Shown here: piece after piece, positions 22,545 through 63,250 of the stretch
Layout of the letters: every line of letters starts with the position of its first letter
Numbering within the stretch: position 1 is the first letter of the stretch
Sequence record: OR352940.1
DNA: 64,000 nt
Strand: one strand, 5' to 3'
Source: Escherichia phage AV110
Made by a program: the position numbers and the translations under genes
The notes under the pieces: model-generated
Databases searched by the model: none
Seen by the model: the letters and a program-made list of their open reading frames with translations, nothing else
Told to the model about the DNA's origin: nothing

Positions 22545-22781
22545 TTAACCACTTACTGGTGTAGGGGTAAACATTGCAGCGTTCTTAGTTTTCCAGTCAG
22601 CTGCATCAGAAACTACAGTAGAATAAGCTGCCTTTTCTGATGGAAAGATTTGGTAATGAGAATCTGCAATCCGATGTTCGTTTGAATAAATCTCAAACGG
22701 CACAGAAACTTCCATACCTTTAACTTCTTTACCTTCACCAGCAGGATGCGTAAAGGTTTTGATGTTTACATAACCACCCAT
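22545..22781 (-). CDS. soc: small outer capsid protein Soc
   Basis: 78 aa; GYVNIKTF...HYQIFPSEKAAYSTV matches T4 Soc as recalled; late promoter TATAAATA about 32 nt upstream; UUCG terminator downstream. Confidence 0.8.
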   Translation of the reverse strand: MGGYVNIKTFTHPAGEGKEVKGMEVSVPFEIYSNEHRIADSHYQIFPSEKAAYSTVVSDAADWKTKNAAMFTPTPVSG

Positions 22782-22783
22782 AA

Positions 22784-23122
22784 TTAACTCCTTTGTTGTT
22801 TAATTACAGGTGTATTTATAATGAATTTCTTCGGGACAATAAAATATCCGAATTTAGCTAATATAACAACATCACCGTTAATTATTACCGGAGAATAATC
22901 ATCTGGAGTATTAAATTTCCAGTGGAGTCTAGTATTATATCCATCAGAGCCGAATGCTTTATTAGCCGGTCTCCCGGCTTTTTGCCATGCATAAAAATCA
23001 AGTTTCATTTGCAACCCAATCAACCATATGTAGATGGTCTGATAATTGACTAACATGCTGAAGCTGATTAGACAGGAGCTTACAAATAAGCTCACTGTTA
23101 TCATTTTTAAATAGTTGGTCAA
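22784..23122 (-). CDS. hypothetical protein, start uncertain
   Basis: N-terminal third looks non-genic; C-terminal part may be a short protein starting near 23008. Confidence 0.35.
   Translation of the reverse strand: MTNYLKMITVSLFVSSCLISFSMLVNYQTIYIWLIGLQMKLDFYAWQKAGRPANKAFGSDGYNTRLHWKFNTPDDYSPVIINGDVVILAKFGYFIVPKKFIINTPVIKQQRS
22813..22820 (-). promoter_or_regulatory. late promoter TATAAATA for soc
   Basis: Exact T4 late consensus on minus strand about 32 nt upstream of soc ATG; soc is a late capsid gene. Confidence 0.6.
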
Positions 23123-25722: not shown

Positions 25723-26382
25723 TTAACCTCGATTCATAAATGCATTAAATATTTGGTCATCAACAGAAATTTCTAATTCGACTTCAATTGCTTCAGCTTT
25801 TTCTTCAGGTGGTAATTCGTATCCACACACTACAATTTTTTCATCGATATCAAAATATACAGAAGCAATACGATTAATGTTATTTTCAGTTAAGTCCAAA
25901 TCAACATCAACATCTTTTTGGCCTACACTTAGAGGATAACTAATACGGGTTATTTTATTATCTTTAACAAAGAGTCCACCAACATACTCTGTACTACGTT
26001 TGAAGTTTACACGTTTCCGAATTGAAAGATATGATGCATCTTTACCGTGAGCTCGGCTCATAGGACATAATGAATAGCTAGAATAAGAGATGTCAAATCC
26101 TACACCTTCAATATGAGCCAACGTGTCATGATTAAACCAATTATAATCATATGCCAAATCCATTATATTGTAATATGTGAAAGGCACTGGATTAACATCA
26201 TATGTTGTACCTTTAAAATCTGCCCAGGCAACGATTTCGTTATCTTTAACAATTACAAAAATTACACCAATATGATATCCACGATTGTTTTCATCAGGCG
26301 TTATATTATAACATTGTGCATCAGGAAATTTACCGTATTTAAACGGTGGATTTTTGTGCATATAATAAATCATATTATTCAC
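25723..26382 (-). CDS. hypothetical protein in 61.2 position (219 aa)
   Basis: Position corresponds to T4 61.2, which I recall (not verified) as the anti-DarT factor adfA locus. Confidence 0.5.
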   Translation of the reverse strand: MNNMIYYMHKNPPFKYGKFPDAQCYNITPDENNRGYHIGVIFVIVKDNEIVAWADFKGTTYDVNPVPFTYYNIMDLAYDYNWFNHDTLAHIEGVGFDISYSSYSLCPMSRAHGKDASYLSIRKRVNFKRSTEYVGGLFVKDNKITRISYPLSVGQKDVDVDLDLTENNINRIASVYFDIDEKIVVCGYELPPEEKAEAIEVELEISVDDQIFNAFMNRG

Positions 26383-26668
26383 CTGTGATTTCGGTTACGA
26401 TATCTTTGTTATCGAAATTAGGGTCACAATACAAAACATAGTTGTACTGCATGGTACCACCAGACTTAAGTTGTTCAACAACTTTATTAACCATATTAGG
26501 ACGGTCTCGTTTAGTGATGTTCATGATATCAGAGAAGATTTGTTGTTCAACATCTTCTTGATTTGCAGTCATTGACCACTCACAGAGGTCTTTATCATAA
26601 CCTGCCGTAACTGGAGCCGGTGCACATGATACTGCAAGTAAGATTGCTGCCAATGATAACTTTTTCAT
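26375..26668 (-). CDS. sp: periplasmic protein Sp (spackle)-like
   Basis: 97 aa; signal peptide MKKLSLAAILLAVSCAPAPVTA; size and position as T4 sp (61.3); own early promoter. Confidence 0.55.
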   Translation of the reverse strand: MKKLSLAAILLAVSCAPAPVTAGYDKDLCEWSMTANQEDVEQQIFSDIMNITKRDRPNMVNKVVEQLKSGGTMQYNYVLYCDPNFDNKDIVTEITGE

Positions 26669-26697
26669 TTTAACTCCTTAGTTGATTTGATAGGACT

Positions 26698-26727
26698 ACT
26701 ATACTATAGTCCATCTATAATGTAAAC
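26698..26727 (-). promoter_or_regulatory. early promoter (GTTTAC-18-TATAGT) for sp
   Basis: Upstream of sp-like gene. Confidence 0.45.
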
Positions 26728-26731
26728 AAGT

Positions 26732-26980
26732 TTATTCTTTTTCGCGAATAATAATTACTTGTTGAGGCTGCTGAGCAGATTTCTTTTCGGCAACGATAGA
26801 CCAAATTAAAGTTCCAATCCAACCAACCATCGTCCAGTTAAAGAGTAAAGATACAAAGAAGATTGCTGTTGTGCTTTTTGTGCCACGAATAAGTGCGATT
26901 ACCCAAGGCAACATGTAAATGATGATTGAACCAATACCTGCGATTAAAACTGCTACTGAACTAGCTACGAATAATTCCAT
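26732..26980 (-). CDS. small inner-membrane protein, superinfection-immunity (Imm)-like
   Basis: 82 aa, two TM segments; pattern YMLPWVIALIRG...VGWIGTLIWS resembles the superinfection-immunity family; own promoter. Confidence 0.5.
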   Translation of the reverse strand: MELFVASSVAVLIAGIGSIIIYMLPWVIALIRGTKSTTAIFFVSLLFNWTMVGWIGTLIWSIVAEKKSAQQPQQVIIIREKE

Positions 26981-27008
26981 GTTAATTTCCTCTTGATTTG
27001 TTATGTTT

Positions 27009-27038
27009 ATAGTATCTTGTTTTAACTTTGGTGTAAAC
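27009..27038 (-). promoter_or_regulatory. early promoter (GTTTAC-18-TACTAT)
   Basis: Upstream of Imm-like membrane gene. Confidence 0.45.
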
Positions 27039-27041
27039 CAA

Positions 27042-27410
27042 TTAATTAAATTTGTTTAAACGTTCAATACACTGGACGTAGTTATTCGCGATTTGTTTCT
27101 GGGTAGGCTCTTTACCAGTTGTTTCAACATAGCGAATGAATGCGATTTCAGTAGCCTGTAGACAATGTTCTTTAACGCGTTGTTCTTTTGTCAATGCTAC
27201 AGTATCAGAATCACGATAACGTTGAGCATGAGCATCAGCTTGAATCATTCGATTACCTACAGTAACCGGGTCTTCCACTTCAACTTTAGGTTGCTCATAT
27301 TGTTTAACATTCGGATTGTAAATCAGTTGGCCGACGTTATTAGGAATAAAGCCATGGGCGCCACATCCGGTTAATCCAAATACCATTGCTAAAGCGATTA
27401 ATTTTTTCAT
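27042..27410 (-). CDS. lipoprotein (122 aa)
   Basis: Signal peptide with lipobox MVFGLTGC; own early promoter and GGAA RBS. Confidence 0.55.
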   Translation of the reverse strand: MKKLIALAMVFGLTGCGAHGFIPNNVGQLIYNPNVKQYEQPKVEVEDPVTVGNRMIQADAHAQRYRDSDTVALTKEQRVKEHCLQATEIAFIRYVETTGKEPTQKQIANNYVQCIERLNKFN

Positions 27411-60379: not shown

Positions 60380-61381
60380 TTATTTCAGTAAAGTTACTTC
60401 AGAGATTTCCTCCCAACCATCTTTATCAGTTGAAATAAAATCTGCTACATAAAGAGCGGTACGTAATGATACATTGCGAAGACGAGATACATTAGCCTTC
60501 ATCCAGGACAATGCTTTATACGTTTCTGCATCAGTCAGACCACGTTTCTGCATCATGTCAGTAGATAATATTACATCTTCAACTCGAACCATAATCTCTT
60601 CATTAGAGTGTACTCCAAGGTCGAGATACACTGAGCGAGATACTAAAGCTTGAAGGTGTGGAGCAAGTTTCGAACCGCGTTCTAACTCTTTATCGATATC
60701 AACGTTTGTAATGAAAACGATAGTACCTTCAAACTCAAATTCTTTATCAATACCCTTATCATCGAGATAAGATGACGCAGTGCTCCAACAAACTTTGCGT
60801 TTATCTCCAGTATCTAATGCTGCTTTAAGAAGATTCAAGATGTCCATATCTGAGAATACGTCAACGTCATCGATTAAGAGAACGCTGTCTGCATCACGGT
60901 TGAGCCAAAGTTGTTCGTAAAGGCCAATACCAGAGATTTTACCATTAATGCTTTTGTATTTGATGAAACCATTATCATTAGCATTATTAAGTGCTTTATC
61001 CAGAGAATACGTCTTACCAATACCGGCTGCACCTGAAATAATGAGTGAACGAATTTTGCCATCGATAATGCCATTCGTCATCATGTTCATTACTTTAAAG
61101 CGTTTGTTGATACGAGTTTTCATATCTTCAGTGCTTTCAACAACTGCAACTGGTGATGTCTCAACTCCTTCCATTACGATGTCTGATTTGAAGACCCATA
61201 CTCCACGTTCAGAACCATCAATCATAACGAAAATTTTACCGTCACCTAAGTGGGAACATTCAGGATTAAGCTTTGCTGGGAACCAGGTCTTTGTGGCAAC
61301 ATAAGAACCAGAGATTTCGTTATTACGATAGATACCTTTTTTGATTTGAACGTTGAACATTTTATTCTCCAATTTACTCAT
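60380..61381 (-). CDS. P-loop NTPase, AAA-like (333 aa)
   Basis: Walker A ISGAAGIGKTYS, Walker B VLLIDDVD, sensor-like TIVFITN; own promoter. Confidence 0.6.
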   Translation of the reverse strand: MSKLENKMFNVQIKKGIYRNNEISGSYVATKTWFPAKLNPECSHLGDGKIFVMIDGSERGVWVFKSDIVMEGVETSPVAVVESTEDMKTRINKRFKVMNMMTNGIIDGKIRSLIISGAAGIGKTYSLDKALNNANDNGFIKYKSINGKISGIGLYEQLWLNRDADSVLLIDDVDVFSDMDILNLLKAALDTGDKRKVCWSTASSYLDDKGIDKEFEFEGTIVFITNVDIDKELERGSKLAPHLQALVSRSVYLDLGVHSNEEIMVRVEDVILSTDMMQKRGLTDAETYKALSWMKANVSRLRNVSLRTALYVADFISTDKDGWEEISEVTLLK

Positions 61382-61398: not shown

Positions 61399-61427
61399 AT
61401 AATAACATATCCTAAAAGCATGTACAC
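61399..61427 (-). promoter_or_regulatory. early-type promoter (GTGTAC-17-TATTAT)
   Basis: Family-1 downstream motif AGACCTATCG; upstream of P-loop NTPase gene. Confidence 0.45.
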
Positions 61428-61447: not shown

Positions 61448-61463
61448 CCCCCTAAAGGGACCC
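61448..61463 (-). terminator. hairpin terminator downstream of secreted-protein gene
   Basis: GGGACC-UUCG-GGUCCC; weak U-tract. Confidence 0.4.
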
Positions 61464-61477
61464 GAAGGTCCCCACAT

Positions 61478-61759
61478 TTACTTATCGCACTTAGCAACAT
61501 AATTAGGCATATCACAGAATACAGAGCGAGTAACTACTCGGCCCTTTGTCCATGCTTCAGTCGCTTGTCCGGCCGTGCTATTAATATAGCTTGATTTAAT
61601 GTTCTCAATACCTTGAGAATGTGATGCATTTACCGAACCATTGGAAGGCCCAGAAGACTGGTTACCACCAGCTCCTGCACTACCGCTGGCTGCACCCGTG
61701 GTAGCACCAACAGAGAATGTCATCATTACTGCGAATAAACCAATTGCTAATTTTTTCAT
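61478..61759 (-). CDS. secreted Gly/Ser-rich small protein (93 aa)
   Basis: Signal peptide MKKLAIGLFAVMMTFSVGA; low-complexity G/S/A/N region; late promoter TATAAATA about 33 nt upstream; hairpin terminator downstream. Confidence 0.5.
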   Translation of the reverse strand: MKKLAIGLFAVMMTFSVGATTGAASGSAGAGGNQSSGPSNGSVNASHSQGIENIKSSYINSTAGQATEAWTKGRVVTRSVFCDMPNYVAKCDK

Positions 61760-61790
61760 ATTTACCTCAAGTTAAGGGTTATTTATCTAC

Positions 61791-62780
61791 TTATTTATAG
61801 TAAGAATTATGATTTTCGAGATAGACTTGCTCAAGGAAATCATCCCAGAAACTCATATCTACTTTTTGTTGCATACCATTCTTGGCAGCTTGTTCTGACG
61901 CATGTTCAACTTGGTCAACGATATCTTCTAGGAATTCTTGTACAGTTTTAAACGTATGTTTACCAAGCTTAACATCGAGAATAAATGGAGCATCCTGAAG
62001 TGGGTAAACCAGGTCGCCGGTTTTGTAAATTTCTAATAGTTGAAGTCCACCACGACATGCATGACTCAATGCTTTCCAGTCAATACCTTCGTTAGCTTCT
62101 GCCTTACGAGCACGTTCACCGTAGTTCTCTTCCAGTTTAACCAGGATGGCATTGAACTCTTTATTGGTTAACGTATCTTGGAATTTACGGTCTAACAGAT
62201 TATAGAATGTTTGCTTACCTGTTTTCTCGTTTTCGGTTTCAACCCACGAAGCAAATTCACCTACAGGCAGAACATTCTTCATATGTGATAAACGAATTAC
62301 TGCACCATTATCAAAGTATTGTCCCCATTCATTAGAACGTTTAAGGGCTTGACGAAGAACAGCCAGTCGAGAACCCTTGACACCGTATTTAGAAGCTTGC
62401 TTACGGACATACCCTAAATAAGATTTCATGTTAGTGGTATAGAAGCGAGACCTGTTATCTTGAATATACTTCCATACATCAGGCAAATCAGATTTAACTA
62501 CTAGACTTTGCGGAGTGTGAAGCATATCTAATGCGACGGTTTCACCATCCGCAGCTAGTTTAAAGAAATATTTGAGACTATACAATTCATGGTCTACGTC
62601 GTCTTTTGTGTTCTTAGAAGATGTGTTATTCGTGTTCTTGCTCATGTGTTCTTTAACGTTACCGGTCAAAATATCACGAGCATGAGGGATATAAATTTCT
62701 TTAAAATCTACGTCAGATTCAGGAGTAGACGTTCCATAAAGGTGGCTACCAAAGTAGCCTTTCATAATTGTTTTCATCAT
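61791..62780 (-). CDS. Pol-beta-superfamily nucleotidyltransferase-fold protein (329 aa)
   Basis: N-terminal GS-x10-D-x-D signature GYFGSHLYGTSTPESDVDF. Confidence 0.55.
   Translation of the reverse strand: MMKTIMKGYFGSHLYGTSTPESDVDFKEIYIPHARDILTGNVKEHMSKNTNNTSSKNTKDDVDHELYSLKYFFKLAADGETVALDMLHTPQSLVVKSDLPDVWKYIQDNRSRFYTTNMKSYLGYVRKQASKYGVKGSRLAVLRQALKRSNEWGQYFDNGAVIRLSHMKNVLPVGEFASWVETENEKTGKQTFYNLLDRKFQDTLTNKEFNAILVKLEENYGERARKAEANEGIDWKALSHACRGGLQLLEIYKTGDLVYPLQDAPFILDVKLGKHTFKTVQEFLEDIVDQVEHASEQAAKNGMQQKVDMSFWDDFLEQVYLENHNSYYK
61792..61799 (-). promoter_or_regulatory. late promoter TATAAATA
   Basis: Exact late consensus about 33 nt upstream of the secreted-protein gene 61478..61759. Confidence 0.5.
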
Positions 62781-63250
62781 TTAGCCTTATATTCAAGAGT
62801 AGGACAGACTTTTTCTTTACGAGCTTTAAGGTATTCACCTATTAATGATTTCTTACGTTCAATAGGCTCAAGTCCATTTTTAATTCGTTCTTGGTTTTGT
62901 GCAATGAGCTCAACTTCTTTATAATACTTCCGCTCTCTGTATAAGTCGATTAGCCACGGTATGCCTAATACTAAAACTATAGAAATACCAACACATAATG
63001 CAATGAATAAAACACCTACACCAATTGAGGCCGGAACTAATGTCCATAAACTACTAAAGACAAAGAATTTAGTTAAAATTTCCTGGCCAACGATTGTGGC
63101 CGCTGCTAAAATCGCAAATCCAATAATCGAAACAAACAATACCGGGAGAAACGTTTTCCAAAAATAAGCACACAACGTTTTCGGGCGATTCCATGTACTA
63201 TTAAACGCGGTATAAATTTTAAAGTGCCAAGAGTTTTCATTGATAATCAT
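62777..63250 (-). CDS. membrane protein (157 aa)
   Basis: Multiple hydrophobic segments; basic C-terminus. Confidence 0.5.
   Translation of the reverse strand: MIINENSWHFKIYTAFNSTWNRPKTLCAYFWKTFLPVLFVSIIGFAILAAATIVGQEILTKFFVFSSLWTLVPASIGVGVLFIALCVGISIVLVLGIPWLIDLYRERKYYKEVELIAQNQERIKNGLEPIERKKSLIGEYLKARKEKVCPTLEYKAK

Follow-up and report, generated by a model that had tools for sequence, protein, structure and literature searches.

The open reading frame at 61478..61759 (-) of the DNA analysed here (64,000 nt of the genome of Escherichia phage AV110, OR352940.1; referred to below as the window) is, by its substitution pattern, a real gene under purifying selection and, by its distribution among relatives, a genuine accessory cassette in the slot of variable content that separates nrdC.11 from nrdC.10. 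Its product is a 93-amino-acid precursor that is probably exported to the periplasm, and the predicted transcription signals indicate that a late promoter probably acts in addition to early read-through, rather than the gene being strictly late. Overall, the gene is real but, as accessory genes of T4-like coliphages go, ordinary. GenBank OL960576 already has annotations for the coding sequence, the late promoter and a terminator, and the product is entered there as a hypothetical protein.

Gene and genomic context

The coding sequence was delimited by open reading frame call, profile match (phrog_2243) and dN/dS. It starts with ATG, ends with TAA (61478..61480) and carries a Shine–Dalgarno sequence, GAGG, 5 nt 5' of the start codon (61765..61768 (-)) that is invariant in 10 Mosigvirus copies. 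For the C-terminal domain of the product, dN/dS was 0.17–0.23 between Mosigvirus and the VR7-, 212- and 04086-type orthologues and 0.02–0.05 within groups. The 13 copies examined were 85–98 amino acids long, their length differences were confined to the linker, and the frame was always kept. Because of these low ratios (0.02–0.23 in all), the in-frame length variants and the conservation in three genera, the open reading frame is regarded as a real gene, as the original prediction had it.

Approximately 3 kb surrounding the open reading frame is 96–98% identical to many Mosigvirus genomes (RB69-/JS09-like T-even phages of E. coli and Shigella), and by this identity the window belongs to an RB69-like Mosigvirus. 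All genes in this neighbourhood lie on the minus strand. The upstream gene, at the 3' end of which the promoter motif is located, is the nrdC.11 homologue, an RlaP-type nucleotidyltransferase (61791..62780 (-)); the downstream gene is the nrdC.10 homologue, an AAA-type NTPase with its own early promoter (60380..61381 (-)). The longest open reading frame of the nrdC.10 homologue (333 amino acids) begins with MSKLENKMFNVQ (61361..61381 (-)), and in several related records the start is placed at a downstream MFNVQ (981 nt), so that the start annotation is inconsistent among relatives. The start of nrdC.11 is overlapped by 4 nt (ATGA) by the open reading frame of a predicted membrane protein of 157 amino acids (phrog_944, 62777..63250 (-)), an arrangement that suggests translational coupling in the upstream operon.

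T-even hyperplastic regions hold hundreds of small orphan genes, few of them with an assigned function. A scan of IMG/VR for relatives of nrdC.11 yielded 25 loci. The gap between nrdC.11 and nrdC.10 is a hyperplastic slot, the contents of which differ by phage or are absent (loci L003–L036). Alternatives to the gene were RB69ORF102c, which encodes a 72-amino-acid basic protein (RB69, L005, 14937..15330), an open reading frame of 62 amino acids (VR7ORF100c type) that overlaps nrdC.11 at its end, small membrane proteins with two transmembrane segments, and other ORFans. The border of the slot was usually formed by a GGNCC-TTCG-GGNCC hairpin and an early promoter. The base composition of the gene is not foreign-looking (GC 0.41 vs. 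0.36–0.40).

Transcription signals

The exact late-promoter motif that had been reported upstream of the gene was confirmed at 61792..61799 (-), 32 nt 5' of the ATG, where a late promoter is also annotated in OL960576. The motif, TATAAATA, is of the T4 type (gp55) and follows the consensus in PMC1524935; late promoters of this kind have it 5' of a gene, on the coding strand, at positions of approximately -13 to -6, and here an exact copy precedes the gene on its coding strand. It spans the final two codons of nrdC.11 (TAT AAA, Tyr-Lys) plus the initial TA of the TAA stop codon. The 64-kb window contains two copies of TATAAATA, whereas dinucleotide-preserving shuffles lead one to expect 6.7 ± 2.6 (each of the 100 shuffles contained two or more). 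Such a depletion agrees with counter-selection of stray late promoters within the early region. The other copy (22813..22820 (-)) is located 31 nt 5' of a 78-amino-acid soc homologue (phrog_1715; region 22545..22820), and both copies thus stand at promoter distance from a start codon (31–32 nt). soc is a bona fide late head-decoration gene, here embedded among early genes.

In the RB69-type relatives without the gene, nrdC.11 also ends in Tyr-Lys, with a TGA stop codon (TATAAATG), and the hairpin follows directly. Junction types were counted by exact 35-mers in the phage collection. The gene-bearing junction with TAA was present in 60 records with leader variant 1 and in 29 with leader variant 2 (89 records, TATAAATAA), and the TGA version of leader variant 1, the commoner one, in 0 records. 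The gene-less RB69-type junction occurred with TGA in 50 records (TATAAATGA) and with TAA in none. The association between stop codon and gene presence is perfect but confounded by descent, as the gene-bearing junctions may go back to a single insertion event, and it is taken to lend moderate support to a functional late promoter; the restriction of TAA to gene-bearing junctions argues for use of the motif. On the other side, the conserved Tyr-Lys-stop ending of nrdC.11 dictates seven of the eight bases of the promoter in phages with and without the gene.

Neither the terminator scan nor the annotation revealed a terminator between the upstream genes (mobD.1 homologue, membrane protein and nrdC.11) and the open reading frame, so that early/middle read-through into the latter is to be expected. 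Going upstream, the first promoter in the annotation is of the middle type and lies slightly beyond the end of the window. In the orthologues from Gaprivervirus VR7, phage 212 and Dhakavirus 04086, TATAAATA is absent, and the sequence TGCTT(C/T)A is followed after 12 nt by TATAGT, TATAAT or TACAAT. A MotA box combined with a -10 element is the middle-promoter arrangement of T4 (consensus in PMC4122927, also quoted in the annotation of OL960576), and the orthologues in VR7-like phages are accordingly predicted to have a MotA-type middle promoter.

It is conceivable, although we consider it improbable, that TATAAATA is an unused or irrelevant by-product of the Tyr-Lys-stop end of nrdC.11 and that the gene is expressed at early/middle times only; in Mosigvirus it would depend on read-through, and in VR7-like phages on a MotA-type promoter of its own. 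Many phages without the gene have TATAAAT at the end of nrdC.11, the three VR7-, 212- and 04086-type orthologues have TGCTT(C/T)A-N12-TA(T/C)A(G/A)T instead of TATAAATA, and in the work of Nolan et al. (2006) the late promoters predicted were confined to T4 late-gene orthologues (PMC1524935). These points have to be weighed against the TAA codon in 89 gene-bearing records versus TGA in 50 gene-less ones, and against the depletion of the motif in the window, in which its sole other copy serves a late gene at the same spacing. A late promoter acting on top of read-through is the reading preferred here. Novel open reading frames were described as co-expressed with early genes (Nolan et al. 2006, PMC1524935), a generalisation with which the apparently stop-codon-dependent late promoter contrasts.

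A hairpin with a UUCG loop and 7 bp, GGGGACC-UUCG-GGUCCC(U), begins 5 nt past the stop codon (61456..61473 (-); centroid energy -12.9 kcal/mol). The z-score of its energy against shuffles was only -1.4, and it is followed only by UUUA, for which reason it was not called by the terminator scan; the VR7-type orthologues have a full U-run after the hairpin. In AV110, the hairpin is a weak intrinsic terminator at best. It is followed by an early-type promoter for nrdC.10, TGTACA-N16-TATTAT with TG (61399..61426 (-)), which is conserved in relatives. Composite stem-loop/early-promoter elements, termed PeSL, border shuffled ORFans in the hyperplastic regions of T4-type phages (PMC2839356, PMC4122927) and are defined by a stem-loop rich in G+C with an early promoter of the TTTACW-N17-TAYWAT type immediately behind it, in a hyperplastic region and at the border of a variable open reading frame (PMC4122927). 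Hairpin and promoter at the present locus have this composition, and gene presence changes to absence at this border. The same PeSL is found immediately 3' of nrdC.11 in RB69, which is without the gene; being one half of a PeSL, the hairpin is thus not gene-specific. The hairpin of the original prediction was recovered, though as a weak terminator at best and without specificity for the gene. The proposal of an isolated late transcription unit was abandoned, given the lack of an upstream terminator in scan and annotation, the middle promoters predicted for the orthologues and the assignment of the hairpin to a PeSL.

Export signal, linker and C-terminal domain

Residues 1–19 (MKKLAIGLFAVMMTFSVGA; 61703..61759 (-)) are predicted by rules to form a Sec signal peptide with cleavage at VGA↓TT. 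The N-terminus consists of MKK, LAIGLFAVMMTF and VGA↓T, and the features of a substrate of SPase I are all found: a positively charged n-region, an h-region within the usual 10–15 residues or so, here a core of 12–14 hydrophobic residues (mean Kyte–Doolittle hydropathy 2.35), and, at -3 and -1, residues that are small. Orthologues from three genera share the V-x-A↓T motif while the neighbouring residues change. The signal peptide is followed by a Gly/Ser/Ala-rich linker (residues 20–37, 61649..61702 (-)), the low-complexity stretch of which, TTGAASGSAGAGGNQSSG, is the sole part that varies in length among relatives, with all of the in-frame length differences located in the linker; a search for a tandem repeat behind this variation gave none. 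Both the signal peptide and the Gly/Ser-rich stretch had been recognised in the original prediction; the former, with canonical n-, h- and c-regions, now stands as a rule-based prediction backed by conservation.

The conserved C-terminal domain (residues 38–93, 61481..61648 (-)) has 40 of its 56 alignment columns invariant and ends with FCDMPNYVAKCDK (Cys-X8-Cys); there are no cysteines before residue 82. The 93-amino-acid protein contains no lipobox (L-x-x-C, with cysteine at +1) and no outer-membrane targeting signal. AlphaFold2 gave a pLDDT of 51 with the full-length alignment and of 57.7 for the C-terminal domain, and both models were too poor for fold comparison.

The hydrophobic segment might also remain uncleaved, either anchoring the protein or, in the manner of T4 RI, forming a signal-arrest-release (SAR) domain, with the conserved domain tethered to the inner membrane by the linker; we regard this topology as unlikely. 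Seven of the 16 residues of the hydrophobic segment are Gly, Ala, Ser or Thr, and the segment runs directly into the G/S/A/T stretch. Its 19-residue hydropathy of 1.64 is near the 1.75 of T4 RI, and a linker of variable length fits a tether better. Its hydrophobic core, however, comprises only 12–14 residues, and V-x-A↓T, which obeys the -3/-1 rule, has been kept from genus to genus while its surroundings vary. Export with cleavage is the reading retained below.

Proposed mechanism and function

The explanation that we hold best as a whole, with middling confidence, is that of an accessory cassette the product of which is exported, expressed at early/middle as well as late times, and modulates the cell envelope. 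The precursor would be exported via the Sec pathway and probably cleaved after Ala19, to give a periplasmic protein of approximately 74 amino acids with a flexible Gly/Ser/Ala tail of variable length and a 56-amino-acid domain, the two cysteines of which (Cys-X8-Cys) probably form a disulfide in the periplasm. The gene would be transcribed both as the last one of the upstream early/middle operon and from the gp55-type late promoter that the two final codons of nrdC.11 provide together with its TAA stop. Its product would be present from early/middle times and be kept up late, and transcripts would end or be stabilised at the PeSL stem-loop before nrdC.10. In the envelope of the infected cell, the protein may act as a non-essential modulator that binds a periplasmic partner and influences lysis timing or superinfection control in an RI- or Spackle-like manner; it would not be a component of the virion. 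The periplasmic factor suggested originally is kept as the best reading.

Our best guess, by analogy, is a factor that works in the envelope as RI or Spackle does, because RI and Spackle are the only well-studied exported T-even proteins of approximately 95 amino acids. The analogy concerns the mode of working and not family membership, since homology to both proteins was tested and is absent. As the window encodes its own Spackle and Imm homologues and RB69 has rI, a role of the RI or Spackle type would be additional to theirs or different. To our knowledge, exported T-even proteins are few (RI, Spackle, spanins), and each one that has been studied controls lysis or superinfection, which makes the 93-amino-acid protein a reasonable candidate for a knockout screen. 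With this gene, an uncharacterised member is added to that short list.

A more specific version is put forward tentatively and as a whole: the protein could be an unrecognised periplasmic effector of T-even phages, the late expression of which was created in Mosigvirus by a single silent TGA→TAA change in the stop codon of nrdC.11, and which, beside RI and Spackle, tunes lysis inhibition or superinfection exclusion or else disarms a defence resident in the envelope. If true, this birth of a promoter would be a clean natural example of the retiming of a shuffled ORFan. The overlap of stop codon and promoter offers a simple model for the gain of timing by a shuffled cassette, as the exchange between TAA and TGA is silent for nrdC.11.

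Another role in the envelope is rather unlikely, namely inhibition of a host defence located in membrane or periplasm, or masking of a receptor in the manner of T5 Llp, by which progeny are kept from loss on cell debris. Such a role would suit a protein that is predicted to be exported, belongs to the accessory content of a hyperplastic region and is expressed into late times; the protein has neither a lipobox nor an outer-membrane targeting signal, and positive evidence for this role is lacking. PADLOC gave no match, which carries little weight because it covers defence proteins and not anti-defence proteins.

The suggestion of a virion-associated factor, here in the form of a strictly late one, has very little left in its favour apart from the late-promoter motif. 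T4-type virions assemble in the cytoplasm, out of which a Sec signal peptide would direct the protein; in addition, a middle promoter is predicted for the orthologues, no structural-protein family was matched, and the distribution is patchy and accessory.

Homology searches

The profile of phrog_2243, a family without assigned function, was matched over the full length (residues 1–93) with E = 2.9e-37. By tblastn, the gene was found in 102 of approximately 50,000 phage records, all of them Mosigvirus, Gaprivervirus or Dhakavirus. An exhaustive HMM profile search of 1.84 billion protein cluster representatives returned only the family's own cluster and no bacterial relative, and a word-indexed protein search only 17 near-identical phage proteins. 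For the 93-amino-acid protein, NCBIfam and PADLOC gave no match and a sequence profile search of the PDB only noise (best E = 0.42); Rfam gave nothing in the locus. By these searches, phrog_2243 is an orphan family. Matches to AFF4_CHD (E 0.008–0.06) were discarded as low-complexity noise. Two family members are filed in NCBI as Escherichia coli and Shigella sonnei; they are on contigs of approximately 168–170 kb and are thus phage genomes inside bacterial assemblies rather than bacterial homologues. In the literature, no paper was found to mention VR7ORF099c or JS09_085, nor was a Mosigvirus transcriptome or virion proteome that includes the gene.

That the phage protein was copied from, or mimics, the periplasmic YbgS of E. 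coli can hardly be entertained: the Pfam match on which it is based (PF13985, E = 1.3e-4, residues 1–71) reaches 22.6 bits against a gathering threshold of 27 bits, is lost once the signal peptide is removed, is not obtained with the VR7 and 04086 orthologues and has no counterpart in the profile search, in which no bacterial relative appeared, so that membership in YbgS is refuted at the sequence level as an artefact of signal peptide and low complexity.

Comparison with known systems

The RI antiholin of T4 and RB69, a small exported protein of lysis inhibition, resembles the 93-amino-acid protein, as predicted here, in its size (approximately 95 amino acids), an N-terminal export or SAR segment and a small periplasmic domain with a cysteine pair. 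It is dispensable, as is presumed for the 93-amino-acid protein, and its gene lies in the same part of the early region. It differs in having no Gly/Ser linker and no detectable homology (hhalign vs. RB69 RI, probability 1.4%; no sequence relationship). In RB69, TATAAATA is found within the 3' end of tk, followed by rI.1 and rI (locus L005, 18420..18760 (-)); tk-rI.1-rI is a close regulatory parallel and a precedent for a late motif embedded in the end of the preceding gene. The annotated start of RB69 rI (MLGFF...) looks truncated, as an in-frame ATG with a GGAGG Shine–Dalgarno sequence is located 27 nt upstream; this start gives MALRAIAIVAMLGFF... and restores the full export/SAR segment.

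Spackle of T4 (gp61.3), a periplasmic inhibitor of the gp5 tail lysozyme that acts in superinfection exclusion, is comparable in length (97 amino acids), in its cysteines and, going by the predictions made here, in a cleavable signal peptide and periplasmic location (PMC7650644). It is unlike the 93-amino-acid protein in that homology is absent and the phage already has a Spackle of its own. Comparison with the latter by hhalign gave a probability of 1.0%, with no likeness beyond the MKK start of the signal peptide, and the family matched by the 93-amino-acid protein is phrog_2243, not phrog_1586 of Spackle. The Spackle homologue of the window (26375..26668, phrog_1586) belongs to a cluster of genes for envelope proteins (26375..27410 (-)), which further comprises a membrane protein of the Imm type for superinfection immunity (26732..26980, phrog_1039) and a predicted lipoprotein of 122 amino acids with an LTGC lipobox (27042..27410, phrog_1754, a family without assigned function).

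Receptor-blocking lipoproteins of the T5 Llp/Cor type are small and exported, act on the envelope and contain disulfides, as is predicted or proposed for the 93-amino-acid protein; the latter differs by the absence of a lipobox cysteine and of homology. YbgS of E. coli shares the small size, the export and a Gly/Ser/Asn-rich region, but the match is below the threshold and depends entirely on the signal peptide.

At the level of the locus, the likeness is to the PeSL-bounded ORFan cassettes (Arbiol et al. 2010; Comeau et al. 2014), which are an already known kind; the AV110 locus, annotated publicly, is otherwise ordinary. As in those cassettes, an orphan open reading frame is bordered by a stem-loop and an early promoter, is present or absent between close relatives, and is replaced by alternative open reading frames in the same slot. 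The cassettes described are expressed early, whereas the 5' junction of that of AV110 additionally contains a late-promoter motif.
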